The notes under the pieces: generated by a model
The model's database searches: none
Seen by the model: only the letters and a program-made list of their open reading frames with translations
What the model was told of the DNA's origin: nothing
Program-made: the position numbers and the translations under genes
Shown here: positions 6,571 to 23,044 of the stretch, piece by piece
How positions within the stretch are numbered: the first letter of the stretch is position 1
How the letters are laid out: every line of letters starts with the position of its first letter
DNA from: Anaerolineae bacterium
GTDB lineage: Bacteria > Chloroflexota > Anaerolineae > Fen-1058
Assembly: GCA_046328575.1 (NCBI GenBank)
Contig: JAXLWI010000019.1
Location: forward strand, 1,153 to 65,152
Reading direction: 5' to 3'
Length of the DNA stretch: 64,000 nt

Positions 6571-6947
6571 GCCTGATCCTCGTCCATGTAACGCGCCACT
6601 TCCCGCGCCAGTTTGACATCGTCGTAAGGCTTCTGGATAAAGCCGACATGGGCCTGGCCACTAAAGCGGCGCGCCACTTCTACCGGATCGTAACCCGACG
6701 ATAGAATTACGCGCACTTGCGGATCGATCTGGCGCAAGCGTTGAAACGTTTCGTCGCCGCTCAGACCCGGCATCGAAAGATCAAGCAGCACCAGGTCAAT
6801 CTCGGCCTGATGTTGACGATAGACGTCTAGACCTTCTTCACCGGAGGCAGCCGTCAACACTTTCCAATGACTCAATTCCAATATATCGGTGACGGCAAGT
6901 CGTACCGGTTCTTCATCGTCGATGACTAGCAGTACAGGTTCCGTCAT
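6567..6947 (-). CDS. single-domain response regulator (CheY-like receiver)
   Basis: LLVIDDEEPVR ... LVLLDLSMPGLSG ... conserved K-region; GGTGGAG RBS. Confidence 0.85.
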   Translation of the reverse strand: MTEPVLLVIDDEEPVRLAVTDILELSHWKVLTAASGEEGLDVYRQHQAEIDLVLLDLSMPGLSGDETFQRLRQIDPQVRVILSSGYDPVEVARRFSGQAHVGFIQKPYDDVKLAREVARYMDEDQA

Positions 6948-7017
6948 GCTTTTTACTCCACCGGCATTCGGCAGTGGCCCAGCCGCTTAATACACAGTAT
7001 AGCACGCGCACCTCAAT

Positions 7018-8157
7018 TTACAGACGTTCAATAATCGTTGCGGTCGCCATACCATGCCCGATGCACATGGTCTGCAAACCATAGCGGCCGCCCGTGCGCT
7101 CCAAGTGATGCAGTAATTTGGTCATGAGAATCGCGCCCGTTGCACCCAACGGATGGCCGTGCGCGATCGCCCCGCCATTGGGATTGACGCATGCGGGATC
7201 AGGTTCGATCTCGGCTTGCCACGCCAGCACGACTGAAGCGAAGGCCTCGTTGATCTCGATCGCGTCGATCTGCCCGATCGTTAGCCCGGCCCGATCGAGC
7301 ACCTTGCGCGTGGCGGGGATCGGTCCCGTCAACATGATCACCGGATCACTGCCGATCACTGCTCGGGCGACGAGCCGCGCGCGTGGTTTCAACCCTAACT
7401 CGATCGCTTTATCCAGCGACATCAACAATACCGCGGCACTGCCATCGCTGATCTGACTGGCATTGCCCGCGGTGATGACGCCGTCAGGTTTGAAGGCTGG
7501 TTTCAACTGCGCCATCTTAGCCACATCCGGCTCGAAGCGAATACCTTCGTCATGGTTGAGGCAGTTGGTCGTGCCGTCGGGCGCGGTAAATTCGATCGGG
7601 ACGATCTCTTTCACGAAGTCGCCACGTTTGGTCGCCGCCGCTGCTTTGACGTGACTCTCGTACGAAAACTGATCGAGTTGGGCGCGCGATAGATGCCATT
7701 TTTCAGCCACCATCTCGGCAGAAAGACCTTGATTGACCAGCGGATACGGAAAGTCCGGCGGCCAATCTTTGGGCCAATCCGCGCCCAACGGCACGCGGCT
7801 CATCATCTCAATGCCGCCCGCGACGACGACGTCCATGTCGCCCGCGGCAATGGCTTGTGCAGCAAAGTGGATAGCTTGTTGGCCGGAACCGCACATGCGA
7901 TTGAGCGTGAGCGCGGGCACCTCGATGGGCAGACCGGCTTGCAGCACAGCGAGCCGGGTGATGTTGGCGCCCTGCTCACCTAGCGGTGTAACACAGCCAA
8001 AGATCACGTCTTCGATCAACGCCGGATCGATGTGTGCGCGCGTCACCAACTCGCGCAGCACGCGCGCCGCCAGGTGCGTAGGCAGCAGGCCGCTCAACGA
8101 ACCGTTGCGCCGACCGATCGGCGCGCGCACGGCTTCGACGATGACGACGTCACGCAT
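7018..8157 (-). CDS. acetyl-CoA C-acetyltransferase (thiolase II)
   Basis: Thiolase N-term VVIVEAVRAPIGRRNG, active-site Cys region NRMCGSGQQA, C-terminal GHPLGATG and CIGHGMA motifs; GGGAGG RBS. Confidence 0.9.
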   Translation of the reverse strand: MRDVVIVEAVRAPIGRRNGSLSGLLPTHLAARVLRELVTRAHIDPALIEDVIFGCVTPLGEQGANITRLAVLQAGLPIEVPALTLNRMCGSGQQAIHFAAQAIAAGDMDVVVAGGIEMMSRVPLGADWPKDWPPDFPYPLVNQGLSAEMVAEKWHLSRAQLDQFSYESHVKAAAATKRGDFVKEIVPIEFTAPDGTTNCLNHDEGIRFEPDVAKMAQLKPAFKPDGVITAGNASQISDGSAAVLLMSLDKAIELGLKPRARLVARAVIGSDPVIMLTGPIPATRKVLDRAGLTIGQIDAIEINEAFASVVLAWQAEIEPDPACVNPNGGAIAHGHPLGATGAILMTKLLHHLERTGGRYGLQTMCIGHGMATATIIERL

Positions 8158-8179
8158 GCTAACCTCCCGAATTAGATTG

Positions 8180-8560
8180 CTAGTCTTCTTTCACGTTACG
8201 CAGGGAGACGGTCGGCTCGCCTTGTTTGCGATATTGCGTTACTTCTGGATGAGACACCGCAAATTTATCCAGCCCTTTGGTGTCCCAGGTGACGCGGCCT
8301 TTGGAATAGACCGCGTGCAGATGAGCGCCTTTCACGCTGGCACCAGCGGACATCACTGCCTGTTTGATCTCTTCAGCCAAAGTTGCGATGCGTTCGGTCG
8401 AAGCGTCAAACAGCGGCTGATACTCGGCTTCCAGCGCTTCGAGTTCAGCCTGCACGGTGCGCATGATCTCGGCGCGTTTCGCTTCGTAATCAACTCGCGC
8501 CACATCCACGGCGCTTTGGATATCGGACAGTTCGTTGAGTTTCGAAATGATATCGGACAT
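8180..8560 (-). CDS. hypothetical protein
   Basis: ORF with coiled-coil-like acidic sequence; ATG at 8560 (MSDIISKL) or GTG at 8584; no recognised motif. Confidence 0.4.
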   Translation of the reverse strand: MSDIISKLNELSDIQSAVDVARVDYEAKRAEIMRTVQAELEALEAEYQPLFDASTERIATLAEEIKQAVMSAGASVKGAHLHAVYSKGRVTWDTKGLDKFAVSHPEVTQYRKQGEPTVSLRNVKED

Positions 8561-8585
8561 GCATTCGATCCTATTGAAAGACACG

Positions 8586-8816
8586 TCAGCGTTTCGCCGG
8601 TAGAATCAACGCCGCGACAAATGCGACTGGCCCCAGCAGCGCCGCGAGATATTGTGATGGTAGACCCAGGGCTGTAGTACGATGCGTGTACGTTGGGCGG
8701 GTGTGGGTACGTGCCTCAGGCGCGAGATACCCTTTCGTGGTTAACCACGTCGCGCCGATCGAGCCGATAATGAGCCAACCGATCAGGATTACGATAATCA
8801 CGGCAAAGGAACTCAT
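8586..8816 (-). CDS. small hypothetical membrane protein (2 TM)
   Basis: ATG 8816 with GAGGT RBS; two hydrophobic helices (AVIIVILIGWLIIGSIGATWL, LAALLGPVAFVAALIL). Confidence 0.4.
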   Translation of the reverse strand: MSSFAVIIVILIGWLIIGSIGATWLTTKGYLAPEARTHTRPTYTHRTTALGLPSQYLAALLGPVAFVAALILPAKR

Positions 8817-8820
8817 CGCA

Positions 8821-9021
8821 CTACCTCGTGGCAAGTTGATCAAGCAACTGGCGAGTCACAGTCGCCACATCCAGCACAGCTTGATTGAACGCGGCTTCAT
8901 TCATGCGCGACGGTTTGCGATAGCCGCTGACCTTGCGCACAAATTGCAGAGCGGCGGCTTGAATCTCCTCATCGGTCGGCGGTCGATCGGGCTGGCGAAG
9001 TTGCTTAATACTGCGACACAT
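8821..9021 (-). CDS. small conserved protein, DUF2277-like
   Basis: 66 aa; MCRSIKQL...PTDEEIQAAALQFVRKVSGYRKPSRMNEAAFNQAV matches my recollection of the DUF2277 family. Confidence 0.5.
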   Translation of the reverse strand: MCRSIKQLRQPDRPPTDEEIQAAALQFVRKVSGYRKPSRMNEAAFNQAVLDVATVTRQLLDQLATR

Positions 9022-9152
9022 TGACTGACTCCTAGTTTAAGCAAAAAAGCAATCTCGGATGCGACGTTGTCGTCTTCCGAGATTGAGTATAGCACACGGG
9101 ACTGAAAGGACATGACGCCAGCCGGATCACGCGAACTACATGGGCGCGGTCT

Positions 9153-9180
9153 GTTGACTTGCGGTTGGTTGAGGCTATAC
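9153..9180 (+). promoter_or_regulatory. sigma70-like promoter TTGACT-N16-TATACT upstream of methyltransferase gene
   Basis: 35 nt upstream of ATG 9216 in a divergent intergenic region. Confidence 0.35.
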
Positions 9181-9215
9181 TCCACGGTAAGAACCAAGTC
9201 CGAAATAGGAGCAGG

Positions 9216-10115
9216 ATGTCAACACCCGCAACACCTCGTTCGGTACAAAATTCGCCGTCTGAAACAGCCCTGGCCACTACACTGCTGCGCGCCTTTGCGA
9301 CGCTCGATGAACGGCCCGAAATCCGCGGCAGCGATTTGCTCGCCCGGCTTTTCCTCACTGCCGACCAACTGAAGCCGCTTGATGATCCCGCCGCTCGCAA
9401 GTGGATTCTACAAAATAAGACTTCGCCCGGCGTGTACGAGTATATGCTCGCGCGAACGGCGTATTTCGATCGGGTGGTAAAGACCGCTTTGTCACAGTCA
9501 GTGCCGCAAGTGGTGTTTCTCGGCGCAGGTTATGATTCGCGACCGTATCGTTTCAGCGATCTGGCGATAGCGACGACGATCTTTGAATTGGACGCAGCGC
9601 CGACACAGGCTCGCAAACGCGAGATACTCGATCGAGCGGCGGTGGTGAAGCCTGCGCACTTGACGTATATGCCGATCGATTTCAGCGTTGATTCATTGAG
9701 CGAGGTGTTACTACAGGCTGGTTTCAATCGCGAAGCACAAGCCTTGTTCGTGTGGGAAGGAGTCACCTACTACTTAACAGCCCAAGCCGTCGATGCGACC
9801 CTGGCCGCGATCAAGACCATCGCCCTGCCCGGTAGCACCATTTGCTTCGATTATGCAGCGCTCTCGTCGGAAACGCTTCGCGACGAAAACGCCGCAAAAC
9901 TGCGGGAGCACATGAAGTCAAACTTCGCGGCTGAACCGACACGCTTCGGTGTGCCGCGTGGGCACATCGCTGAATTTCTGTCAGCCCGTGGCTACACGGT
10001 GCTGGATCATCTCGGTTCGGCCGAGATAGTGGCGCAATTTCTTACCCTACACGACGGAACAGCGATCGGTCAACCGCCCGCGTTGTTCAGTTTGGTTCAT
10101 GCGGCGCTCGCCTAA
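9216..10115 (+). CDS. class I SAM-dependent methyltransferase (leucine carboxyl methyltransferase/TIGR00027-like)
   Basis: ATG 9216 with AGGAGCAGG RBS; SAM-binding VVFLGAGYDSRPYRF and VWEGVTYYL motifs. Confidence 0.75.
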   Translation: MSTPATPRSVQNSPSETALATTLLRAFATLDERPEIRGSDLLARLFLTADQLKPLDDPAARKWILQNKTSPGVYEYMLARTAYFDRVVKTALSQSVPQVVFLGAGYDSRPYRFSDLAIATTIFELDAAPTQARKREILDRAAVVKPAHLTYMPIDFSVDSLSEVLLQAGFNREAQALFVWEGVTYYLTAQAVDATLAAIKTIALPGSTICFDYAALSSETLRDENAAKLREHMKSNFAAEPTRFGVPRGHIAEFLSARGYTVLDHLGSAEIVAQFLTLHDGTAIGQPPALFSLVHAALA

Positions 10116-10638: not shown

Positions 10639-12123
10639 TTAAGCTGCTGGCAGCGTGAAACTAAACGTGCTGCCTTCGCCGGGGATGCCGCTGCTTTCCA
10701 CGCCGACCGTGCCGCCTAACCGCTCGACGATGCGTTTTACGATCGACAGGCCCAAGCCATGTCCGCCGCGCTTGGCCCGCGAAGTCTGGAAAAACGCTGT
10801 GAAGAGCTGCGCTTGCTCCTCAAGCGGAACCCCGATGCCGTCATCGTGAATCCAAAAGCAAATCTGCCCGTCGGCAATTGGCGCTGCGCCCAATTCAATG
10901 CAGCCAGGCCGATTCATGTACTTCAACGCATTGGACAAATAGTTCATCCACACTTCTTCGATCCACGGTGCGTACCCCAGCGCGTTCGGCCACAGACTGG
11001 GTTGCCGCACTTCGACTTGATCGTCCAACTGATCGATCAGGCGCTGCCGGACCTCAGTCACGATCGCATCCATGTCGAGAGGCCGTAACGTGAACGTATT
11101 CTGGCGCACCTCGGCCAAGAGCAGCAAATCGTCTGTAATACTGTTGATCTTCAGGGCTTGATGCTGGATGGCCTGTAAAACATCGAGATTTTCGGTCGAT
11201 GTGTACCGCGTTGAATAAAGCGACAGCAACTCGGCATAGCCAATGATCAGGTGCAGCGGATTCTTGATATCGTGGGCCACTGTATGAGCGAAGGCATCGA
11301 GTTCAGCATTGCGGGCCTGCAGCTCGGCGTTGGAATGGCGCAACTGCGCTTCCGCCTGTCGCCGTTCGGTGACATCGACGCCGGTGCCAATCACGTATTC
11401 GATTAGCCCGTCGTCATCGGCGAGCACCGTATTTGACCAGGCGATCAGCCGCCGCCGACCATCTTTCGTGATCCAGAAGTTCTCAAAGTTCAGCGGAAAG
11501 TCGCCTGCGCGCAGTTTTTCGAAGACACCTCGAACCGGATCAATTTCATTCGTGGTCAGCAGAAACTCCCACAGCTGACGATGTTTGACTTCAGCAAACG
11601 AATAGCCTGTCACGCGTTCGCACATCCGATTAAACCGGACGATACGCCCCTCGCGATCGAGGACGACGACCAATGCGCCGATCGTGTCCAACACGGCCGA
11701 CACGAAGTTACGCTCGCGCCGCAGTTCGTCTTCGACTTGTTTGCGGCGCGTGATATCATGCACGATCGCACACTGATACGTTTGGCCGCGCAGCTCAATC
11801 GGGCCGGTGTAGACTTCGACATCTCGAACCTCGCCATTGGCCAGGCGGTGTTTCAAGAGATGCGGCTGTCGATCAGTCCGGTGCGCTTCGCGTAAGGTCC
11901 TTTTTGCTTGCGCTGGTGGGAGGCCGTCGAGGTCAGTAATTTTGAGGGCGGTCAGTTGAGCGCGGGGATAACCATAGAATCGGCACGCCGCAGAGTTGAC
12001 ATCGACGATGTCAAACGTCTGTGGATCATAGATCAGCATGACGGTGTGCTGATTCTCAAACAACCGACGGTAGCGCTCGTCGTTGTTGGCAGGTCGGGCC
12101 GCAGATCGTTTAGCCATAATCAC
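10639..12123 (-). CDS. PAS domain sensor histidine kinase
   Basis: Two PAS-like segments, H-box HTVAHDIKNPL, N/G boxes (NALKYM, HDDGIGV, GHGLGLSIVKR). Confidence 0.85.
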   Translation of the reverse strand: MIMAKRSAARPANNDERYRRLFENQHTVMLIYDPQTFDIVDVNSAACRFYGYPRAQLTALKITDLDGLPPAQAKRTLREAHRTDRQPHLLKHRLANGEVRDVEVYTGPIELRGQTYQCAIVHDITRRKQVEDELRRERNFVSAVLDTIGALVVVLDREGRIVRFNRMCERVTGYSFAEVKHRQLWEFLLTTNEIDPVRGVFEKLRAGDFPLNFENFWITKDGRRRLIAWSNTVLADDDGLIEYVIGTGVDVTERRQAEAQLRHSNAELQARNAELDAFAHTVAHDIKNPLHLIIGYAELLSLYSTRYTSTENLDVLQAIQHQALKINSITDDLLLLAEVRQNTFTLRPLDMDAIVTEVRQRLIDQLDDQVEVRQPSLWPNALGYAPWIEEVWMNYLSNALKYMNRPGCIELGAAPIADGQICFWIHDDGIGVPLEEQAQLFTAFFQTSRAKRGGHGLGLSIVKRIVERLGGTVGVESSGIPGEGSTFSFTLPAA

Positions 12124-12270: not shown

Positions 12271-14214
12271 CTACGGCACAGTGTAGGCCGCTAGCATAAC
12301 CTTCCCACAATCATACTCGTAGTGCAGATTACCCCCCGGGTGATCGCGTGTCCATTCGCGCAGTTCCGAAATGCGATCCGGAATCGCCACCACTACGGTG
12401 TCCGCCTCTGGCCGCTGTGTGCTCAGCGGCTCGTCCAGGTTGACGATTGGTACATTGCCGCCCAGAAAATCAACCGAGCGGTGCGTGCCATAGCGCAAGT
12501 CCGGATTGCTCAGCAAAATCAGGGTAGTCTCACGTTTGAGCGTACGCTGGTAATTGCCCAGATACGAGGCAAAGCGCGTGCCAAAGCCACCGCCGTAACG
12601 ACACTGTCCGGCAAAATCCAGGAAGTACGATTGCAGGTTCAGGGTCGCCGCTACTATAAGCAGACTGACCATGACGCTCAGGCGTGCTACGCGCCGTTCA
12701 GGCACAGCCAGCGCCAGCACAGTCAACATCAAATCGATGCCGAGCGCGGACAGCAAAATGGCCGCAGGCAGCACCATCAACATCCGATAGGAATCGGCCC
12801 CCGGCGGGATGGAAAAAATGCCGATCGCTAAAGTGCCCGACCAGAAATAACCATTCAGCAGCAAATGGTGACGATCACGCGTCCGCCAGATCGCGTACGC
12901 GATACCCAACATAAAGAAAATCGCGGTTAAGTCGCTAAGCACTGGTAACCGCGAACCATAGAATTCATCGGCGGGATAGTAGATCAACGAGAGGAAAGCG
13001 TGCGTCACCCGATCGGCCAGCACTTGCACCGCGCTCTGTCCGGTCGCAGCCATCTGGTTCGCCAGCCAACCCGATTGGAAAGTCCCATCGGCATTAAGTC
13101 GCGCCATATACAGATCAATATGGCGCGAGTTATACACAATCTGTGGCGCGGCCACCAACAATGCACTCAGTGCAAAAACCAGAATAGGGTAGCCGGCGCC
13201 TTTGAGCAACGAGCGCTTAAACACCGCGACTACCAGCACGTAGACCAGCAGCAGCGCCGCAACAATTTGAGCGCTGACATACACGCTGTTTTGCACGGCC
13301 AGAAAGACACCCCCCAGTGCCATGCGCCGCAGGTCGCGCCGCTCCAACCCGCTGATGAACAGAAACAGCACGACTGGAATGAACCATGTATCTTGAATGT
13401 AAGCCACTGCGACGGTGCGGCTGAAATGCACGTGCGTATGTGCCACAATCAGGAGTATCGCCGCCAGCAGCGCCACGCGCCGACTGAACAGATATCGCCC
13501 CAACACGTACAAAGCCGGAATCGCCAGACTGCCGCCAATGGCCGGCATCAGCCGCAAAGCAAACGGTGTGGTCCCAAACACCTGCACGCTTAGACTGATC
13601 GCTTGAATGTAGAGACCGCCAAAGTTATCTGCCAGCGAAAATGGATTCGCCAACGGGTTGCGATTGGTGGTTGTAGCGTACACGCCGATCAGCCCTTCAT
13701 CGCCGTTGATGACGCGCGGGATTTGTCCCAGGTTGTAGAACCGTACCGCAGCCCCGGCGGCGGTCAACAAGCCGATGATGATCAGTTCTTGACGGTGCGC
13801 TTTGAGCCAGGCGCGCACGTTGAACGGTTGGCTAGCCATGAACGCACCCAACCACAGCCCGATACTACTGAGCCACAACAAGAACACCAACATGTAATTG
13901 GTGCGGTCGAGCAATTCATATTGAACATCCAATGCCGTAGCCGAGGCACATGACGCCAGGGCCAGTAATATGAGAAGCGTGCGGGCCGAAGCATTGCGTC
14001 GGCCAACGAGCGCACTCAACCGCGCCGGCATGCGTCCTACTCTAGTCCAAACCAATAACACAACCGCCACAGCACTCAGCACCAGTCCAGGTATCAACCG
14101 GTCTGATCCTAAAGATATCAGCAATTGTCCAGCCGCCAAGGCGATTAGAAATAGAACACCCAAAAATGCGCGGGTTCGTTGCTCGGCCAACTGCGGTTCA
14201 GGTGCAGAATCCAT
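12271..14214 (-). CDS. glycosyltransferase family 39 (ArnT/PMT-like) membrane protein
   Basis: Polytopic membrane protein; preferred ATG 14214 (MDSAPEPQ) with AAAGG RBS, longest ORF uses TTG at 14319. Confidence 0.7.
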   Translation of the reverse strand: MDSAPEPQLAEQRTRAFLGVLFLIALAAGQLLISLGSDRLIPGLVLSAVAVVLLVWTRVGRMPARLSALVGRRNASARTLLILLALASCASATALDVQYELLDRTNYMLVFLLWLSSIGLWLGAFMASQPFNVRAWLKAHRQELIIIGLLTAAGAAVRFYNLGQIPRVINGDEGLIGVYATTTNRNPLANPFSLADNFGGLYIQAISLSVQVFGTTPFALRLMPAIGGSLAIPALYVLGRYLFSRRVALLAAILLIVAHTHVHFSRTVAVAYIQDTWFIPVVLFLFISGLERRDLRRMALGGVFLAVQNSVYVSAQIVAALLLVYVLVVAVFKRSLLKGAGYPILVFALSALLVAAPQIVYNSRHIDLYMARLNADGTFQSGWLANQMAATGQSAVQVLADRVTHAFLSLIYYPADEFYGSRLPVLSDLTAIFFMLGIAYAIWRTRDRHHLLLNGYFWSGTLAIGIFSIPPGADSYRMLMVLPAAILLSALGIDLMLTVLALAVPERRVARLSVMVSLLIVAATLNLQSYFLDFAGQCRYGGGFGTRFASYLGNYQRTLKRETTLILLSNPDLRYGTHRSVDFLGGNVPIVNLDEPLSTQRPEADTVVVAIPDRISELREWTRDHPGGNLHYEYDCGKVMLAAYTVP

Positions 14215-14236
14215 GAAATACCTTTCGGCAATAGAA

Positions 14237-14275
14237 TCATTCAGCCGTTCGTCGAATTGGCGAACGGCTGAATGA
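14237..14275. repeat. perfect 15-bp inverted repeat between the two GT39 genes
   Basis: TCATTCAGCCGTTCG-tcgaattgg-CGAACGGCTGAATGA. Confidence 0.4.
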
Positions 14276-14390
14276 AGATGAAGCGGTGGTCTGCCGTTCG
14301 TTGTTAGGGGCGAATCCAAACCGCCCGTTTCTTCTGAATCCGGCTGACCCCATTCTGATACTATTTGCCCATCATGTCAATGCGCCGAAC

Positions 14391-15941
14391 TTAGCCAAAA
14401 CCTCGCAACCGTTTCCAGAAATCAGGCCACGCTTGGCGCAGGTGTCGGCAAAAATATATATCGGGGTGACTTGTCTCTTCATTTCTCACACCATATGCAT
14501 TCTTGACTTGCCCGACCAACTGGCACGTGTCAAAGGCCGAATTGGGCAGCATCCCTAGCAAGATTAGATTCTGCGGTGGGGGATTGCCATAGCCGCGCAG
14601 CCAGTAGGAATTGATGCCGCTGATCGCCCCAGGCAAACCGTAAACTGGCCCATACAAGTTGATCGCGCCTGCTTCGCCATAGTTGCCGGTCAATATTCCC
14701 GTCTGGGCACGCTCATCAGCGGGCAAAGCCGCATAGATTTTGGCAACTGTTGCTACCAAATCGGGCCAACCGATCTGCTCTTTGAATTCGCCGTTGATTT
14801 CAGTCACTGTATTCCACCACGCCGACTTGATCGGCGCGATGGGCAGCGCCACAGCCGCAAAGAGCACGCCGCCGATCGCCAACGCCGTGAACACGCTAAT
14901 TCGAACGAGCCACGACCAACCGATCGAGAGCGCGGCGACCCCGCGTTCCATCATGACGGCACCCGCCGCGATCAACATTGGGTAAGCGGCCGCCAGGTAA
15001 TACGATCGGCCTTGTGTAACGACAAACAACATACCTGGCACGAGGAACATCCAGCCGATCGCGCGATAAGCCTTTCCGGCCTTGCCGAAGAAATAGAACA
15101 CCAGACCCATCACCCACAACGGAATGGTTACTGGGTTAGTGGAAAAGAGGAACTGCTCTTTCAGAAAGTCCTGAGTGCGCCCGATTCTGATATCGCGTGC
15201 GTGGATCGATCCCAGGAAATCCAGCGAGATGAAATTGTGTTGAATCTGCCAGATCAGATTCGGCAGGAAGATCAGCAGCGCCAGTGCAACACCGGCCCAC
15301 AACCACGGGCTGATCAAGTGACGGCGCGTTCGAGTGATGATTACGCCCGCCACAATTCCGGCGACTAGAAAGATCAGCGTGTACTTGGTCATCAGCCCGA
15401 GGCCGATGACCGCGCCGATCGCCAGCCACCAGCGCGGATTATCGGATTTCAACAGCCTGATCATCAGATAGGCGATCAGCACCCACCACAGCACATCGAA
15501 CGAAGAGTACGAGAACAACGCGCCCGCGAGAAGTGAAACCGGCGCAATACCTGCGGCCACAGCCGCCGTAACCTGAGCCAGTCGCTTGCCGCCCAATTCG
15601 CGGGCCATCAACCCGGCTAATAGCATCATGGCCGCTTGCGCCAGCGCTGGAAACAGGCGTACGCCAACTAGCGATGGGCCAAATAGCGTCAGAGCCGCGC
15701 GCATAATGAAGGCCGTCACCGGCGGATAAGCAACGTAACCCCAGTCCAGGTAACGCGCGCTATCCAACATGTCCAACTCGTCGCGATGCCAGCCATACTG
15801 GCTGTTGACGAGTAGATGCAGCCCAATTTTTGCCAGCGCCAACAAGATCAGAATGCTCACATCCGTAAATCGAATTCGAGCCTTGATCGCATCCAGAGAA
15901 AACCGCGCAGGTGTCGTAGCGCTCAAATTCTTGGCGGTCAT
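14391..15941 (-). CDS. glycosyltransferase family 39 (ArnT/PMT-like) membrane protein
   Basis: ATG 15941 with AAGGAG RBS; N-terminal loop with conserved D/E (RDELDMLD) typical of GT-C ArnT-like enzymes. Confidence 0.75.
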   Translation of the reverse strand: MTAKNLSATTPARFSLDAIKARIRFTDVSILILLALAKIGLHLLVNSQYGWHRDELDMLDSARYLDWGYVAYPPVTAFIMRAALTLFGPSLVGVRLFPALAQAAMMLLAGLMARELGGKRLAQVTAAVAAGIAPVSLLAGALFSYSSFDVLWWVLIAYLMIRLLKSDNPRWWLAIGAVIGLGLMTKYTLIFLVAGIVAGVIITRTRRHLISPWLWAGVALALLIFLPNLIWQIQHNFISLDFLGSIHARDIRIGRTQDFLKEQFLFSTNPVTIPLWVMGLVFYFFGKAGKAYRAIGWMFLVPGMLFVVTQGRSYYLAAAYPMLIAAGAVMMERGVAALSIGWSWLVRISVFTALAIGGVLFAAVALPIAPIKSAWWNTVTEINGEFKEQIGWPDLVATVAKIYAALPADERAQTGILTGNYGEAGAINLYGPVYGLPGAISGINSYWLRGYGNPPPQNLILLGMLPNSAFDTCQLVGQVKNAYGVRNEETSHPDIYFCRHLRQAWPDFWKRLRGFG

Positions 15942-17176: not shown

Positions 17177-17794
17177 CTAGGCTAGATTGAAACGCATGGC
17201 CGTTTCCCGATAAGCCGCGACGACAAGCATGAGCACACCTAGCGTTAGACACAGCACTTCAGCCTTGGTCAGCCTAACGTCGCGGAGGCTCATCACTTTG
17301 GTCGATTTCCACTGCCACCAACTCTGGTATTGATACACTCCCAACCTGACCGTTGAGGCGATAATCAGCAGGTAAGCCAGCATTTCAAAGCCGCCGATGC
17401 TGATCGCGAGCGCCGTGCCCGTCCAGGCGTTGAGTTGTGTCAAGTCGGAAGCGCTAAACGAGTTGGTGCCTGAAATCAGGCCACTGGTTATCCCCAGTGA
17501 AATCGGCACCAGGTAGCCCGCCGGCCAGCCTTTGACTTGATTCAGATTCAAGACTATGCCGAGCACGACTTGCAGCCCAAGGTTGAAGAACAACGTCAAG
17601 GCGAACTCCGTCCAGAAGTCGTTGGCGGTGGCCATGCGCCCGACGGCCACTGCCGGGCTACCACGCATAAAGCCTTGAGGCAGCAAGTAATACCCAACTA
17701 GATACGCAGCATTGGATAGCAGGGTATAGAGTCCATAGAGCCACAAAGCGCGCTTAAACACGCTATCGTGCACCTGAACCAGTGACGTATTCAT
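17177..17794 (-). CDS. hypothetical integral membrane protein
   Basis: ATG 17794 (MNTSLVQ) with AAGGA RBS; about 6 TM segments; longest ORF extends to 17986 in Arg-rich non-coding-looking sequence. Confidence 0.5.
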   Translation of the reverse strand: MNTSLVQVHDSVFKRALWLYGLYTLLSNAAYLVGYYLLPQGFMRGSPAVAVGRMATANDFWTEFALTLFFNLGLQVVLGIVLNLNQVKGWPAGYLVPISLGITSGLISGTNSFSASDLTQLNAWTGTALAISIGGFEMLAYLLIIASTVRLGVYQYQSWWQWKSTKVMSLRDVRLTKAEVLCLTLGVLMLVVAAYRETAMRFNLA

Positions 17795-17811: not shown

Positions 17812-19032
17812 TTAGGCCGCCTTGCTTGATGTAGTCAAGCGGGCCACGGATCGGTGTGCGGCCTTCATGCCGAATGCACTCTGTAGTACGCTCACACGCT
17901 TGATAACCAGTTCGGTGATCCCAAGTGACATCACGAATGCGCCGAGTACAACGACCGGCAGTTTGACCACAAGGGCGGCCTCCCATTGCACGACGACGTA
18001 GGCAATGACTAGAATCGCCGGCTGGTGAACCACGAAGAATGGCAGGAGGGTCACCTGCCCGTAACGCAGTGCCTGGCTGTCACGGTTGAGGTAGCGCATA
18101 CCGATGACCAACACAAAGGCCGTCCAGCACCAGCCGCACGTCGCAATGAGTGCCCACATAAGGAATTCCCAGAACGTGCTGGGGGACCTCTCGATATCGA
18201 ACGATTCCAGCGACATGCCGATTACCATTGCTGCCAGTGTGGCTGCGATTCCGACACCGAGGATGATCCGCCAATCACGCCGGATAGCGCGTGTGAATCG
18301 CTCGTCGGCAAACACGACATAGCCCAGGACGAAAAACGTCCCATAGGTGAAGAAATCAGCCCAGTGTTGCAGTTGGGGGAAAAAAGGTTGGAGGCTTAGT
18401 CGAACTAAGGCGGGCGGGAGGATGAACAGCAAGATGGCGCCGCGACGCTCACACAGCTTTGCCAGGCGCGAGACAAGCCCTCGGCCGGTTTCGCCTTTGA
18501 GCCAGATAAAGAGCGGCAGGGCCAGCAGCGAGAAAGCGAACAGGAAGCCTAGAAACCACATATGGTAGCCGATCGCCCCGATGATCTTAGGGCCTGTATA
18601 TGATAGGCGTTCCGACACGAACTCAAAGAAAGAGCCATCAAAAACGCCGGTCTGCATTCTATGGCTCCATGAAAGATAGAGTTGGAGCGGGCCAAGCAGA
18701 ATGGTGCCAGTAAAGAACGGAACGAGAATCCGCAAGGTGCGTTCGCGGGTGAACTGCCCCGCCGAGCGTCGCTGCAACGCAAACCAACTCCCTGCTCCGG
18801 CAAGCAAGAAGAAGAGGGGCATCCCCCACGGGTAGAAGAGCGTATCGACGATCAGGATCACCTCGCTGCCCTCGGCATTCCTAATCTCGAAATTAGTCGT
18901 ATTGAACACATTGCTGGCATGGAAGAGAAAGACACCTAACGTGGCGATGACGCGCAGCCAATCGAGATAGTGTAGTCGTGCGGTCTCGCGCGTGGCGCCA
19001 GTGGGTTGCGGCAAAACGTTTGGACTTGACAT
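17812..19032 (-). CDS. acyltransferase family 3 membrane protein
   Basis: ATG 19032 (MSSPNVLP) 8 nt after receiver-gene stop; YLDWLRVIATLGVFLFHA signature. Confidence 0.75.
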   Translation of the reverse strand: MSSPNVLPQPTGATRETARLHYLDWLRVIATLGVFLFHASNVFNTTNFEIRNAEGSEVILIVDTLFYPWGMPLFFLLAGAGSWFALQRRSAGQFTRERTLRILVPFFTGTILLGPLQLYLSWSHRMQTGVFDGSFFEFVSERLSYTGPKIIGAIGYHMWFLGFLFAFSLLALPLFIWLKGETGRGLVSRLAKLCERRGAILLFILPPALVRLSLQPFFPQLQHWADFFTYGTFFVLGYVVFADERFTRAIRRDWRIILGVGIAATLAAMVIGMSLESFDIERSPSTFWEFLMWALIATCGWCWTAFVLVIGMRYLNRDSQALRYGQVTLLPFFVVHQPAILVIAYVVVQWEAALVVKLPVVVLGAFVMSLGITELVIKRVSVLQSAFGMKAAHRSVARLTTSSKAA

Positions 19033-19040
19033 GACAGACC

Positions 19041-19406
19041 TCACCTTCCCAGTGTCATAGCTTGTAAAAGCGAACTTAGCGGCGCGCCCTTTTCGATGAA
19101 GCCATCTACCCCAGCCTGAGCCGCTTTGTGCCGCGCGGCTTCGCCGGTGTGAATCGATAGGGCGACGATGCGGCAAGCTGAGCGCCGGGCCTTGATCTGC
19201 CGGGTAGCCTCATAGCCGTCCACCATCGGCATTTCCAAATCCATCAGGATGACATCCGGCTGCAGCACCGTGGCCTGCTCGATTGCTTCTGCGCCATTCG
19301 CGGCTTCTCCCACGACCTGGAAATCGCCAGCCAGCGGCAGCAGCGTGCACAAGTCTTGTCGCACTTGTGGTCGATCATCGACGATCAATACACGGATCGG
19401 CTTCAT
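19041..19406 (-). CDS. single-domain response regulator (receiver only)
   Basis: VLIVDDRPQVRQDL...DVILMDLEMPMVDG...K-box. Confidence 0.85.
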   Translation of the reverse strand: MKPIRVLIVDDRPQVRQDLCTLLPLAGDFQVVGEAANGAEAIEQATVLQPDVILMDLEMPMVDGYEATRQIKARRSACRIVALSIHTGEAARHKAAQAGVDGFIEKGAPLSSLLQAMTLGR

Positions 19407-19412
19407 AGCACA

Positions 19413-19595
19413 TCACGCCACGAAATAGAGATTGGCATAGTCGAGATCAAGGGTGCTGAAATCAATCTTCAATTTGGAATCTAAGTCCCCGAACATCTCG
19501 TTCGACGGGTCAACTTCGAATGGGTCGCTCAGCAAGCTGGACACCGATCGCTCGGTTGAATGATCGAAACGGATAGTGATAGTTGAGGTGCTCAT
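19413..19595 (-). CDS. possible small acidic protein (60 aa), uncertain
   Basis: ORF in a lower-GC spacer immediately upstream of receiver gene; no RBS, no motif. Confidence 0.2.
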   Translation of the reverse strand: MSTSTITIRFDHSTERSVSSLLSDPFEVDPSNEMFGDLDSKLKIDFSTLDLDYANLYFVA

Positions 19596-19815
19596 GGTTT
19601 AGTCTTTGCTCAATTGCATTCGCTGTGTTTCATTGCGCCATCACTATATGCCGGATTCACATCTGACACATCGCACAGCAGGCGGATTTGAGCCGCGGCG
19701 GCACGCTGATCTTTCCGTCGTTCCGCAGGATGAGGCGGCAAGCAGGGACTACGCCTGGAGATGTAGGACTAAAGGCGGAGCAGAGATATTCGAGATGATT
19801 TGTTGCGTGCTAGGC

Positions 19816-20604
19816 TTACTCTTTGGGGCGCAGCTGCGTGATCAGCGAACGGAGTTGGGCCAAAGCGTTACCGCTCAGCGCCTCCAGCTGATCGAGGTAC
19901 GGGGATACCCGCGCGGGATCTCGATCCAACATCGCCCGCGCTGCTTCGACGGTGAGCGTAATGCTGAAGATGCTTTGATTCACCGAGTCGTGCAATTCAC
20001 GGGCCACCCGATTGCGTTCATGCACCGCCGATAGTTCCTCGGCCTGTACGGCGTAATCCTGCAACTTGGCGTGGGCGGTTTGCAAGTCTTCCACGAGCGC
20101 AGCGCTTTCAGTCCGCGCCACCTCGGCTTGCCATGACAGTCGGCCGAAAGTGATCACGAAGATGCCGACCGCAATCAAGTTGAACAGTACCGACAGTCCA
20201 ATGGCCGCACCCATAGCTGTTATCAAGAACGGAGCGGCGATGATAATCAATAGGCTACACCAGAATATCGCCGTGCGAATCGGAAAGTAGAAGACCGCCT
20301 GTGTGCCAAGTATGACGTAGAGGCTCCACAAAAAATCGAAGTTCGGGGCCAACAGCCCCAGCCATACCACCAGCCCCGTTTCCAGGGCGAAATACAACCC
20401 GCGATAAGGCCGCCAGCGACATGACAGCCGCGGTTCAGTGGCGTACAACAGCAGAAAGATCGCCAACAGCAGCAAGCCCAGCCAAATCCCCGGCGTGCCG
20501 CCATAACTCAACAGCGCGCGCAGCGTCACGATGGCAAACAACGTGTAATGGGTGGCCGCAATCACCCGCTGGCTTTGTGTGCGTTGGCCGGCTGCTTTGA
20601 TCAT
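19816..20604 (-). CDS. truncated sensor histidine kinase paralog (TM region + HisKA_3 dimerisation/phosphoacceptor, no HATPase_c)
   Basis: ATG 20604 overlaps stop of upstream kinase (ATGA); H-box ELHDSVNQSIFSITL then stop after LRPKE; downstream 220 nt non-coding. Confidence 0.6.
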   Translation of the reverse strand: MIKAAGQRTQSQRVIAATHYTLFAIVTLRALLSYGGTPGIWLGLLLLAIFLLLYATEPRLSCRWRPYRGLYFALETGLVVWLGLLAPNFDFLWSLYVILGTQAVFYFPIRTAIFWCSLLIIIAAPFLITAMGAAIGLSVLFNLIAVGIFVITFGRLSWQAEVARTESAALVEDLQTAHAKLQDYAVQAEELSAVHERNRVARELHDSVNQSIFSITLTVEAARAMLDRDPARVSPYLDQLEALSGNALAQLRSLITQLRPKE

Positions 20605-21779
20605 GACGCCATCACCTTCACGCACGTCCCCTGCCCCGGCTGCGAATCAATCGTCAACGTCCAGCCTAACTCACGTGCGCGTTCGGCCATGCTGGCCAGC
20701 CCCATGTGGCCGCGCTGCGGCGTGAGGTCGCTCATCACAAACCCGGCGCCGCGATCGATCACTTCCACACAGGCGGGATGCTGATTCAAGCCTAACTTAA
20801 TCGTGACCTCGCGTGTGTCCGCGTGCTTGATCACGTTGTTCACGGCTTCCTGTACGATGCGATACAGGCCAAGGGTCACAGTCTCTGGCCAGCGACCGTC
20901 ATCGGGGACATCACTTATTTCTAGATGGGCGATCAAACCGTCACGCGCCTGTCGCTCCGCCAGGTAATCACGCAGCGCCGCCACCAGCCCCCGGTCGGCG
21001 ATCGACGCGGGGCGCAGCTGTTTGACGATCGTTTGTATTTCGCGCGACGCGTTCCGCGCCAATTCTGCCACCCGATCGAGCTGGGCGGCGACCCGGCTGA
21101 CGTCCTTGTCGAGCAACATCCGCGCGGCCTGCACGGCCAGCGTCAGGCTAAACACCGTTTGTGTCACCGAATCATGCAGTTCGCGCGCCAACCGGCCGCG
21201 CTCTTGCACAACAGCCAATTCTTCCAACTGCGCGGCCTGATCCTGCAACTGTCGATGCGCCACTTGCAGCTCAGCCAGCAGACGCTGATTCGCCTGCCGC
21301 GCCGCTTCCGCTTGTTGCCGAACATGCGCAATCTGGCCGACGAAAAAGCACACCGCGCCGTAGAGCAGCGTCATCGCGAATCCAGTCGCAGGATCGATGG
21401 CGAAATACACCTGACCCCAGACCCGCGGTCCCAGCGTAAACAAACTCAACATCGCTAACGCGCAGATCGCGATCCATGTAAACCCTACGCGCCGTCCAAA
21501 CAATTCGACTGCTTGCCAACTGAGGGGAATGAACAGGAGTGGAAAGAAATCGTGATGAAGCGGAATTAGTAACAGCGCAGCGACGAGGCCGGATTGCAAA
21601 CCAAGATAGATCAGCGATCGGTTGTGAGAGGTGGTGAACCAGGTCGAGCGGCGCTGACGAACGAGCAACAGCAAGCCATATGCCGCCAGCAACAGCATGA
21701 CCCAACCGCGCGATGAGCGGCCGCTGAAGGTCGCCCACGCCCGAATGACCACCGAAGCGAAAATGAACAGTGTGCCCAT
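20601..21779 (-). CDS. sensor histidine kinase, HisKA_3/NarX-LiaS type
   Basis: TM N-terminus, H-box ELHDSVTQTVFSLTL, HATPase N/G boxes (VQEAVNNVIKHA, DRGAGF, GHMGLASMAER). Confidence 0.85.
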   Translation of the reverse strand: MGTLFIFASVVIRAWATFSGRSSRGWVMLLLAAYGLLLLVRQRRSTWFTTSHNRSLIYLGLQSGLVAALLLIPLHHDFFPLLFIPLSWQAVELFGRRVGFTWIAICALAMLSLFTLGPRVWGQVYFAIDPATGFAMTLLYGAVCFFVGQIAHVRQQAEAARQANQRLLAELQVAHRQLQDQAAQLEELAVVQERGRLARELHDSVTQTVFSLTLAVQAARMLLDKDVSRVAAQLDRVAELARNASREIQTIVKQLRPASIADRGLVAALRDYLAERQARDGLIAHLEISDVPDDGRWPETVTLGLYRIVQEAVNNVIKHADTREVTIKLGLNQHPACVEVIDRGAGFVMSDLTPQRGHMGLASMAERARELGWTLTIDSQPGQGTCVKVMAS

Positions 21780-21782
21780 CGG

Positions 21783-22475
21783 TTAGGCTTTAGTACCCAA
21801 CCCCTTCTTCATGGCATAGATCGCTGCCTGGGTGCGATCTTCACAGTGCAGCTTGCTCAAGATGTTGCTGACGTGCGTCTTCACGGTCTTCTCGCTGATC
21901 GTCAATTTCTGCGCGATCTCGTGATTGTTCAGCCCTTGTGCGATGAGTTGGAGAACTTCTAGTTCGCGACCGGTCAAGTCAGATTCAGCGGGCGACGGTG
22001 TAGCGGCGGGCGCCGCCACTGCCGTCATCAGTTTCTTCGCCGCATCGGGATGCAGTTGCACCTTACCGGCATAAGCCTCGCGCACGGATTGAATCAGTTC
22101 CCGTGGCGGAATGTCTTTCAGCAGATAGCCTTGCGCCCCGGCTCGAATCGCCGGAATGACATGATCATCTTCGCCAAAGCTGGTCAAGATGATGATGCGC
22201 GTCTGAGGGCAAGCCGCGGTGAGATGGGGAATCGCCTCGACGCCGCCCATTTTGGGCATGAGCAGATCGAGCAAAACGATATCGGGCTGAGTGCGTCTGG
22301 CCTGGTCGATTGCTTCCAGTCCGTTGGCTGCTTCGCCCACGATTTCTATATCATCCTGGAGTTCAAGAAAGGTGCGCAAGCCTTGTCGAACGACGGCATG
22401 ATCGTCCACGATCAAGACCGTGATCCGATGCACCGGTATCCGATCGCTCTCGCCTGCTGGCTGCGCTGTGCTCAT
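21783..22475 (-). CDS. NarL/FixJ-family response regulator (REC + LuxR-type HTH)
   Basis: VLIVDDHAVVRQGL..., LTGRELEVLQLIAQGLNNHEIAQKLTISEKTVKTHVSNIL. Confidence 0.9.
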   Translation of the reverse strand: MSTAQPAGESDRIPVHRITVLIVDDHAVVRQGLRTFLELQDDIEIVGEAANGLEAIDQARRTQPDIVLLDLLMPKMGGVEAIPHLTAACPQTRIIILTSFGEDDHVIPAIRAGAQGYLLKDIPPRELIQSVREAYAGKVQLHPDAAKKLMTAVAAPAATPSPAESDLTGRELEVLQLIAQGLNNHEIAQKLTISEKTVKTHVSNILSKLHCEDRTQAAIYAMKKGLGTKA

Positions 22476-22573
22476 GCCGCTCCTTTCACGTTCAGGGTCT
22501 CGTACCGTGATCGACCAGCAAAGTTGCCAACCGTGTTTATCTTACCACGATCGATGCCGATTGTTTTCGCGGC

Positions 22574-22603
22574 CAAAAAGAAAGCCGACTCACCGTCGGC
22601 TCG
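22574..22603 (-). terminator. rho-independent terminator after CBS gene
   Basis: On minus strand GCCGAC-GGTGA-GTCGGC stem-loop followed by TTTCTTTTT. Confidence 0.5.
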
Positions 22604-22630
22604 CTGTCTATCGTCTGCCTTCAACCTATC

Positions 22631-23044
22631 CTAGTCCGGTCCCCAGCCCTTTTCTTCTACACACTGGAAGATGTCGGTATCGCTGACGATGCCGACGAGT
22701 TTGCCTTCCTTCATCACTACCGCGCGGCGGATGTTGGCGTCAAGCATGATGATGGAGCATTGCTTGATCGGAGTATCGGGCGACACGGCGATCAGCGGTG
22801 ACGACATCAAATCGCTGACCGTGACGTTGAGCAGCGGTCGATCGGCAGCGACGATCTTCTTCAACAGATCGCGCTGGGTCATGATCCCGTAGGCCCCCTC
22901 AGGTCGATCGGGTTCGACGACGACACTGTGAACGTGTCTCGAGCGCATTAAATGCAAAGCGTCTTCGGCCGGCATCGATGCGGGTACAGTAATTACTGGC
23001 GAGGTCATGATCTCGCCGACAGTGTACGGTTTCAAACCAGTCAT
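22631..23044 (-). CDS. CBS domain pair protein
   Basis: Two CBS repeats; ATG 23044 with GGGAGGTGA RBS. Confidence 0.8.
   Translation of the reverse strand: MTGLKPYTVGEIMTSPVITVPASMPAEDALHLMRSRHVHSVVVEPDRPEGAYGIMTQRDLLKKIVAADRPLLNVTVSDLMSSPLIAVSPDTPIKQCSIIMLDANIRRAVVMKEGKLVGIVSDTDIFQCVEEKGWGPD

Follow-up and report, generated by a model that had tools for sequence, protein, structure and literature searches.

Proteins that join a histidine kinase-like sensor to a dimerisation and histidine-phosphotransfer (DHp) domain, with no recognisable ATPase domain, are a recognised category, known as incomplete histidine kinases or "HisKA, no HATPase" proteins and also listed as such in P2CS. Suggested roles for them, as phosphoacceptors or phosphatases, have never been put to the test (Galperin et al. 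2018, PMC5847659). Here we describe such a protein, S, encoded in a stretch of 64,000 nucleotides of an Anaerolineae bacterium (Chloroflexota; GenBank assembly GCA_046328575.1, contig JAXLWI010000019.1, positions 1,153 to 65,152 of the forward strand), below called the window. S is a paralogue of the complete sensor kinase F, whose gene directly precedes it. Comparative analysis indicates that S belongs to a conserved Chloroflexota family of membrane sensors that has kept the phosphate-handling helix and lost the ATP-using domain. Our preferred but tentative reading (probability roughly 0.45) is that S acts as a kinase-less, separately gated arm that docks the response regulator and/or the single-domain receiver of its module and drains or redistributes their phosphoryl groups, probably in association with F. 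In the literature we found only the general incomplete-kinase category, and no description of a HisKA_3 family with six transmembrane (TM) helices and no catalytic and ATP-binding (CA) domain, or of its module.

Several described systems offer a frame for such a protein. In HisKA_3 kinases the phosphatase motif is DxxxQ/H. In DesK, the glutamine at position H+5 (Q193) holds the hydroxide in place for its attack, and dephosphorylation is a hundred times slower without it; contacts with the ATP-binding domain help to orient the receiver when the kinase is in its phosphatase state. In the DesK-DesR pair, back-transfer from the phosphorylated regulator to the histidine is thermodynamically favoured, and is normally checked by the conformational equilibrium of the kinase. 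DivL of Caulobacter is a histidine kinase paralogue that senses a phosphorylated single-domain receiver and modulates a true kinase. RocA of Streptococcus pyogenes has six TM helices and interacts with CovS; its histidine is dispensable, and it works without the CA domain when overexpressed. In Myxococcus xanthus, RedCDEF joins a true kinase, the non-autophosphorylating kinase-like protein RedE and two response regulators in one pathway, where RedE accepts phosphoryl groups from one receiver and has phosphatase activity towards the other regulator (PMC2755868).

The module in the window lies on the minus strand, as do all window features given below, and the four genes discussed here fall within 3.5 kb. 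The sequence-only reading had placed both kinases upstream of a NarL-type regulator, but in the direction of transcription the regulator is 5' of them and the operon order is RR-F-S. This first gene (21783..22475) encodes a response regulator (RR) of 230 aa with a receiver domain and a GerE/LuxR helix-turn-helix (Pfam Response_reg E 1e-29, GerE E 2e-22); its best matches in an NCBIfam scan, NarL and MadR, are both under the cutoff. F (20601..21779, 392 aa) starts 3 nt past the RR stop. As the earlier reading had it, F is a full kinase, with an N-terminal region of the six-TM type, HisKA_3 at residues 193-258 (E 2e-16) and HATPase_c at residues 303-389 (PF02518, E 1e-11; 20613..20873), the only HATPase_c in the module. 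Its H-box, H202-D-S-V-T-Q207 (21159..21176), carries the phospho-accepting histidine and the DxxxQ phosphatase motif. The stop of F and the start of S overlap as ATGA (20601..20604), also as previously noted, and a Shine-Dalgarno-like AAGGTGA lies inside F, 7 nt upstream of the overlap. S (19816..20604, 262 aa) runs from a conserved ATG at 20604 to a TAA at 19816. A NarL-type single-domain receiver (REC, 121 aa, 19041..19406; Pfam Response_reg E 4e-26) follows further downstream and has the complete phospho-acceptor set (DD, D56, S/T and K) in the alignment. One true kinase, one kinase-like protein without an ATPase domain and two receiver proteins are thus encoded together, the parts list of a four-component system, and the arrangement is seen again in dozens of loci.

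S itself consists of a membrane sensor, a signalling helix and a DHp hairpin. HisKA_3 (PF07730) is its only Pfam domain, covering residues 196-261 and profile positions 1-66 of 68 (19822..20019, E 9e-20); HATPase_c (PF02518) has no Pfam match in S. The protein stops two residues past the QLRP that closes the second DHp helix, and it is 40% identical to F across 201 aa (E 2e-39), in line with the earlier description of a paralogue with a similar H-box that ends right after the DHp domain. The same description had found no HATPase remnant behind S, and we see none: a tblastn of the F catalytic domain against 18900..19900 gave chance matches only (best E 0.74), and the three downstream frames translated from this region contain no ATPase motifs. 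A frameshift or an ATPase domain hidden in another frame was therefore rejected. The H-box of S, H205-D-S-V-N-Q210, lies at 19975..19992, and D206, S207, V208 and Q210 are invariant in an alignment of 26 S sequences.

The AlphaFold2 model of S, built on 26 sequences (predicted confidence, pLDDT, 76), has six membrane helices joined by loops of 1-5 residues. The helices span residues 10-34, 40-61, 65-85, 90-106, 109-131 and from 133 onward, and the last one continues through the signalling helix into DHp helix 1 (133-228, bearing H205), followed by DHp helix 2 (234-258). The sensor part, about residues 10-155 (20140..20577), contains four polar residues that are invariant in the alignment (R29, Y71, D90, Y96). 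A profile search of the PDB with S gave the DesK DHp domain as sole match, and in Foldseek the S DHp superposes on that of DesK with an rmsd of 2-3.5 Å over 70-90 residues; the fold search found no solved counterpart of the TM sensor. Among the named equivalogs of NCBIfam the best kinase matches are MadS, LiaS, NarQ/X and MctS, all far under cutoff. In terms of definitions, S has HisKA_3 with its histidine and the DxxxQ motif, but since the catalytic domain is absent it falls outside the enzymatic histidine kinases, and without an ATP-binding domain S alone is not expected to autophosphorylate. It does have the features of an incomplete histidine kinase, i.e. a kinase-like sensor and a DHp domain with the conserved histidine but no recognisable HATPase domain, a category set out in PMC5847659 and in a preprint on incomplete histidine kinases. 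Genes of the S type should not carry the annotation "histidine kinase".

To ask how common this form is, S was searched against 5.8 billion proteins, which gave 559 matches reaching E 1e-146, far beyond chance. The best 120 of these are almost all 256-285 aa long with HisKA_3 alone, with identities of 45-92%; a full-length kinase is first met at rank 112, and more than 110 S-like clusters have no HATPase_c. In 116 S homologues the tail past the L[RH]P motif is 0-20 aa long. An exhaustive profile search of 1.84 billion representatives at 50% identity found 328 proteins at E < 1e-30, and among the best 150 of these 71 end at most 30 aa past the DHp domain and 63 have a catalytic domain. The closest species-representative match is a metagenome-assembled genome (MAG) of Thermoflexales, at 60% identity, and all comparative sequences are from MAGs or metagenome contigs. 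The dN/dS of S is 0.13-0.20, with values of 0.13 (dS 0.33) and 0.18 against two close relatives; for comparison, F has 0.11, RR 0.09 and REC 0.19. By these ratios S is under purifying selection. Its DHp domain has a mean column entropy of 1.01 bits, compared with 1.05 bits for F, in 18 paired loci.

These data speak to whether S could be a functionless remnant of a duplicated kinase, 3'-deleted or frameshifted, which the sequence-only reading had kept as an alternative. The open reading frame does end at a domain boundary with lower-GC DNA behind it, and a few related loci show decay: S is truncated within the DHp domain in locus L032 and reduced to a 115-aa fragment in L030, and F is split by a frameshift in L013 and L020. 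However, the length and the stop position are held across 45-92% identity, selection against change is evident from the dN/dS values, synteny and the start/stop overlap are conserved, nothing of an ATPase domain follows, and the S clades are old and separate from F. We therefore reject a remnant and regard it as extremely improbable. The orthologous loci show the same two genes and not a fused normal kinase, and the claim of a functional DHp-only paralogue, taken in its general sense, is supported by the conservation, the selection and the conserved module. Among the roles which the sequence-only reading had suggested for such a paralogue (heterodimerisation with the full kinase, phosphatase-biased or dominant-negative modulation), the dominant-negative one has no evidence that specifically favours it. 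The split or truncated genes lie at L013 3738-4944, L020 3592-5774, L032 4893-5618 and L030 5001-5348, where either an assembly error or true decay is possible.

The survey of gene order covered about 170 loci, drawn from genomes that represent species, from metagenomes and from single look-ups, with domains called by phmmer searches using the window's own domains; 80 S loci remained after de-duplication. The carriers are Chloroflexota MAGs (Thermoflexales, Anaerolineales, Caldilineaceae) and one MAG labelled Actinomycetes. A full paralogue lies upstream in 30 of the 31 S loci that have at least 2.7 kb of upstream sequence, directly adjacent in 20 and with the RR gene in between in ten. The adjacent pairs usually have the same 4-nt overlap, which is present in L001, L004, L008, L012, L014, L015, L092, L174 and L176. 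Where at least 1.5 kb of downstream sequence is available, a single-domain receiver is found within 4.5 kb of S in 36 of 43 loci, mostly with an Acyl_transf_3 (AT3) gene directly after it; the control loci, with a homologous full kinase and no S, have a receiver in two of nine (Fisher p = 7e-4). The earlier reading had missed that S belongs to this larger conserved module with the receiver and the acyltransferase. One locus, L016, has F-RR-REC-AT3 and no S.

In neighbour-joining trees of about 250 columns, the F proteins of both gene orders form one clade (bootstrap 80; subclades 98 and 95). The S proteins make up one clade or two, apart from F (bootstrap 97 for type B and 62 for type A), and never nest within F; the gene duplication and the loss of the catalytic domain in S are therefore old. 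The joint monophyly of S has a bootstrap of 15, and the CA domain may have been lost once or twice. The subclades of S and F seem to branch in matching order in an unbootstrapped tree, and the two proteins appear to have diverged together since the duplication.

The H-boxes give clues to the mechanism. S has H-D-S-V-[N/S/G]-Q, while 37 of 40 F proteins from S-containing loci have HDSVTQ, and the threonine at H+4 marks the F clade. The D and Q of the DxxxQ motif are present in 116 of 116 S homologues and in all copies at the S loci; the histidine is present in 115 of the 116 close homologues and in about 94-99% of S sequences overall. Four short clusters among the 50%-identity representatives have replaced it, with arginine in P0113 and P0133 and tyrosine in P0141 and P0227, and all keep D...Q. 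P0141 (L176/L177), which 12 contigs carry, has a canonical RR-F-S(ATGA)-REC-AT3-AT3 locus, and P0113 (L174) sits in an F-S-REC-AT3 locus; P0133 (L178) comes from short contigs on which no REC was called downstream of S. Because His-less S proteins occur in complete modules, S would usually employ phospho-His chemistry but could do without it. The face for docking and phosphatase action, as judged from the conserved motif, is universal.

The same variants bear on a relay of the Spo0B/ChpT type, in which the phosphoryl group would pass from F to REC, then to His205 of S and finally to the NarL-type RR (His-Asp-His-Asp), with the sensor of S as a second checkpoint. The module has exactly the four parts needed (a kinase, a REC-only protein, a DHp-only protein with a conserved histidine and an output regulator), S and REC co-occur far above the control loci, the phospho-acceptor residues of REC are all kept, and Spo0B has a DHp-like helical domain. 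Even so, we think a relay unlikely. The seven S loci without a nearby REC include L004 and L099 (6 kb of flank) and retain the histidine, L016 has the REC but no S, and in the His-to-Tyr and His-to-Arg proteins of complete REC-bearing modules a relay would be impossible. The first helices (alpha1) of RR and REC are so alike that F can probably phosphorylate RR directly. The glutamine of DxxxQ is invariant although a pure phosphotransferase would not need it, and S has no pseudo-CA domain as Spo0B and ChpT have.

Proteins that lost the histidine within intact modules point in another direction, to a pseudokinase like DivL or RocA. Here S would have no phosphoryl chemistry of its own but act allosterically on F through contacts of the TM or DHp helices, perhaps reading the phosphorylation of REC to switch F between kinase and phosphatase mode. 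The tyrosine variants recall DivL, which also has a tyrosine in place of the histidine, and the tight linkage of S with F and with a REC-only protein would suit such a role, for which DivL-DivK-CckA and RocA-CovS are precedents. However, the great majority of S proteins keep the histidine, and D and Q are invariant, where a partner that acts by allostery alone should have drifted at these positions, as RocA has. The S DHp domain is also at least as conserved as that of F. A purely allosteric S is accordingly, in our view, quite improbable.

Two further observations concern the contacts between the proteins. The alpha1 helices of RR and REC are alike (VRQGLRTFLEL and VRxDLxTLLxL), as are the first DHp helices of S and F, which suits a single pathway with cross-talk better than two that are insulated from each other. 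An assignment of S to REC or RR by specificity residues gave no partner, as the alpha1 helices are too alike and the 18 paired loci too few. The second observation is a natural fusion of 703 aa, [6TM-DHp]-[6TM-DHp-CA], found as two gap-free sequences with 84% identity from different samples (P0124, P0268). By Rosetta-stone logic, the fusion suggests that such modules work in physical association. In its locus (L175 5001-7112) the fusion is followed by an RR, a single REC, an alpha/beta hydrolase and an Lnt-type N-acyltransferase.

The fusion also speaks for the main rival to our reading, an obligate asymmetric heterodimer of S and F, paired through their DHp, signalling and TM helices into a receptor with two sensors and a single catalytic domain, in which the CA domain of F would phosphorylate His205 in trans and S would be a positive, phosphoryl-carrying subunit. 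S is almost never found without F, the translational coupling by ATGA is kept in many loci, and the 18 S/F pairs have no indels from TM6 to the histidine, so the helices could stay in register. The histidine is kept in nearly all S proteins, and there are precedents for split or trans-phosphorylating kinases, such as the split CheA Hik36/Hik43. The Mycobacterium tuberculosis pair Rv0600c/Rv0601c and CheA3/CheA4 also work by trans-phosphorylation; the system Rv0600c/Rv0601c-TcrA is otherwise listed only as two sensor kinases with one regulator. Still, at about 40% identity S and F separated long ago, paralogous kinases usually evolve to avoid heterodimers, and the RR gene stands between F and S in a third of the loci (10 of 30). 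For the fused chain, homodimers in which like modules pair with each other would be just as conceivable. Since the S proteins with Y or R for the histidine persist in otherwise intact modules, trans-phosphorylation of S would not be its universal function. An obligate heterodimer of this kind is possible, but we hold it to be doubtful.

The separately gated arm that we prefer would work as follows. F would be the only ATP-driven source of phosphoryl groups in a four-protein module of F, S, RR and REC that is wired to an envelope acyltransferase unit. S would contribute its own six-helix intramembrane sensor and an intact DHp face for docking receivers, and the membrane signal perceived by S would gate its binding to phosphorylated RR and/or REC. 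In all lineages S would then drain these receivers by DxxxQ-assisted hydrolysis, and in most, including the window, also by back-transfer onto His205. The pathway would thereby gain an "off" or redistribution arm with a gate of its own, most likely operating while S is physically associated with F. RedE, DivL and the roles suggested for HisKA proteins without HATPase are precedents for such an arm. The favoured transfer from regulator to histidine in DesK-DesR argues for S as a ready phosphoryl acceptor. We infer the phosphatase chemistry from the DxxxQ motif, invariant also in the His-less variants, and the association with F from the near-obligate co-occurrence, the conserved overlap and the natural fusion. 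The back-transfer, the identity of the receiver and the gating by a TM signal are likewise deduced from sequence comparison.

Several points weigh against this arm. The DesK ATP-binding domain helps to position the receiver, and a lone DHp domain may for this reason have little phosphatase activity if F does not contribute a CA domain. F retains its own DxxxQ motif, so there is no sign that the phosphatase role was handed over from F to S. The histidine is kept beyond the need of a pure phosphatase, and phospho-His chemistry, in a relay or by trans-phosphorylation from F, may dominate in most lineages. The sequence cannot tell which receiver is the substrate of S, and the sequences are all of MAG or metagenome origin.

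A related and bolder proposal is that S and F are the two halves of a hard-wired, asymmetric heterodimeric receptor. Its two intramembrane sensors would differ, its two DHp hairpins would share a single catalytic domain, and S would read the phosphorylation state of REC, as DivL does, and/or supply the phosphatase half-site. We think this somewhat unlikely. If it is true, a natural "half-kinase" controls envelope acylation, and the 703-aa fusion is the covalent version of it.

The remaining features of the window surround this module. A terminator-like hairpin (22602..22582) lies upstream of the RR gene. Behind S, the 220-nt intergenic region (19596..19815) has a GC content of about 52-54% against 58-62% in the genes. 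The sequence-only reading was right about the length and the lower GC content, but the region is not featureless. In an alignment of the window with L092, L011 and L001 it contains the conserved blocks TAGTCCTACATCTCC (19771..19757), AAAGATC, AATCCGCCTGC and GCGTATAGTGA.GGCGCA, the last of which holds a -10-like TATAGT near 19640. These blocks are kept although dS to L092, the nearest of the compared loci, is already about 0.85. The region is probably the promoter or operator of the unit formed by a small open reading frame, REC and the acyltransferase. No terminator was found after S, and an Rfam scan over 19000..22700 gave nothing at E <= 1. Autoregulation via the same site upstream of RR was considered and is not supported, the conserved 15-mer being without a second convincing copy in the window.

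The small open reading frame (19413..19595), directly upstream of REC, encodes an acidic protein of 60 aa that is conserved in homologues but has no Pfam or NCBIfam match. It has a phmmer match in L011 (E 9e-20) and a homologous frame in L092, and open reading frames of 63-96 aa in L008, L013, L014, L015 and L024 share the motif D[YP][GF]F[DE][FV]D...acidic...[FY]..[LI][YF]. After REC, with a start 8 nt past its stop, comes a membrane acyltransferase of the Acyl_transf_3 family (17812..19032, 406 aa from the ATG at 19032; PF01757, E 6e-32), which is likely the effector or the target of the module. A membrane protein of 204 aa (17177..17791), without a match in the family search, stands between this gene and a second Acyl_transf_3 gene, and two PMT_2 glycosyltransferases are found further downstream. 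These two PMT_2 (GT-C) genes and a cytoplasmic PAS-PAS-HisKA-HATPase_c kinase lie at 10639..12123 and 12271..15941, downstream of the acyltransferases, and the module therefore heads an envelope glycosylation and acylation cluster.

The surroundings of the module vary between loci. In L092 (1-4847), the closest long relative, with an S that is 76% identical, the module adjoins the start of the division and cell-wall cluster (mraZ, rsmH, a small ftsL-like gene, a penicillin-binding protein gene and murE), which is on the opposite strand. The NarL-type regulator upstream of F is N-terminally extended to about 500 aa in L004 (3184-4692), L012 (1454-3013), L025 (3281-4834) and L096 (3162-4691); that of L004 adds a Ser/Thr protein kinase domain (Pkinase-REC-GerE). 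The same locus has, in place of the REC-acyltransferase unit, a MalT-like AAA_16-TPR-GerE regulator of 885 aa after S (6825-9482), with a 4-nt overlap. In L006, L007 and L019 (5940-9000) an island with toxin-antitoxin (MazE/PIN), DNA methyltransferase/HinfI and HEPN genes lies between S and the REC-acyltransferase unit. Two Caldilineaceae loci, L046 (4713-5768) and L060 (4953-5711), have a second and distinct kinase-less HisKA_3 paralogue adjoining a full kinase, with a degenerate H-box, ARELNH[TS]LGH, in which the histidine is off by one position and Q is replaced by H.

Proteins with a DHp but no ATPase domain are usually dismissed as noise in the annotation or as genes in decay, and not one of them has been characterised; S is a conserved and selected component. 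Its natural variants, i.e. the loss of the histidine, the covalent fusion and the two gene orders, make a compact system for questions on two-component signalling: whether kinase and phosphatase inputs can be split between sensors, whether functional heterodimers of sensor kinases exist, and what a DHp domain can do alone.

Compared with known systems, S is closest to the DesK or LiaS/NarX class, sharing the HisKA_3 DHp domain with the HDxxxQ H-box; the DesK DHp is its only solved relative by sequence and by fold. In both, the membrane sensor is built of several helices with very short loops and runs on into the signalling helix, and the partner regulator is of the NarL/LuxR type. Unlike DesK, S has no HATPase_c, six predicted TM helices instead of the five of DesK, and a complete paralogue next to it or nearby in almost all loci. 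With the incomplete histidine kinases S shares the sensor, the DHp domain with conserved histidine, the missing ATPase domain and the annotation as a kinase (PMC5847659). Those described are for the most part from archaea, of the HisKA type and equipped with PAS or GAF domains, whereas S is a bacterial HisKA_3 protein from Chloroflexota, with six TM helices and a fixed module that includes a full paralogue, two receivers and an acyltransferase.

The Spo0B/ChpT proteins and the split kinases (Synechocystis Hik36/Hik43; M. tuberculosis Rv0600c/Rv0601c) resemble S as His-bearing helical modules that rely on the catalytic domain or the receiver of another protein. S has the DHp-like hairpin with a transfer histidine that marks Spo0B and ChpT but no obligatory REC donor, with seven of 43 loci lacking a nearby REC. 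Spo0B and ChpT are soluble and have a pseudo-CA domain, while S is membrane-bound and ends two residues past the DHp domain; given this, and a histidine that is not always needed, S does not belong to that type. In a split kinase each partner lacks what the other supplies, but F is complete with its own H-box and CA domain. DivL and RocA are kinase-inactive paralogues of histidine kinases, as S would be, and some S lineages have Tyr or Arg for the histidine; both keep a degenerate CA domain, in contrast to S, which has none and in which the histidine and the phosphatase motif are strongly conserved. RedCDEF has the same set of parts as the window module, one true kinase, one kinase-like protein and two receiver proteins. 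The Red regulators, however, are a dual-receiver protein and a single-domain output, with no DNA-binding NarL-type regulator described, and RedE is known as kinase-like by description only.

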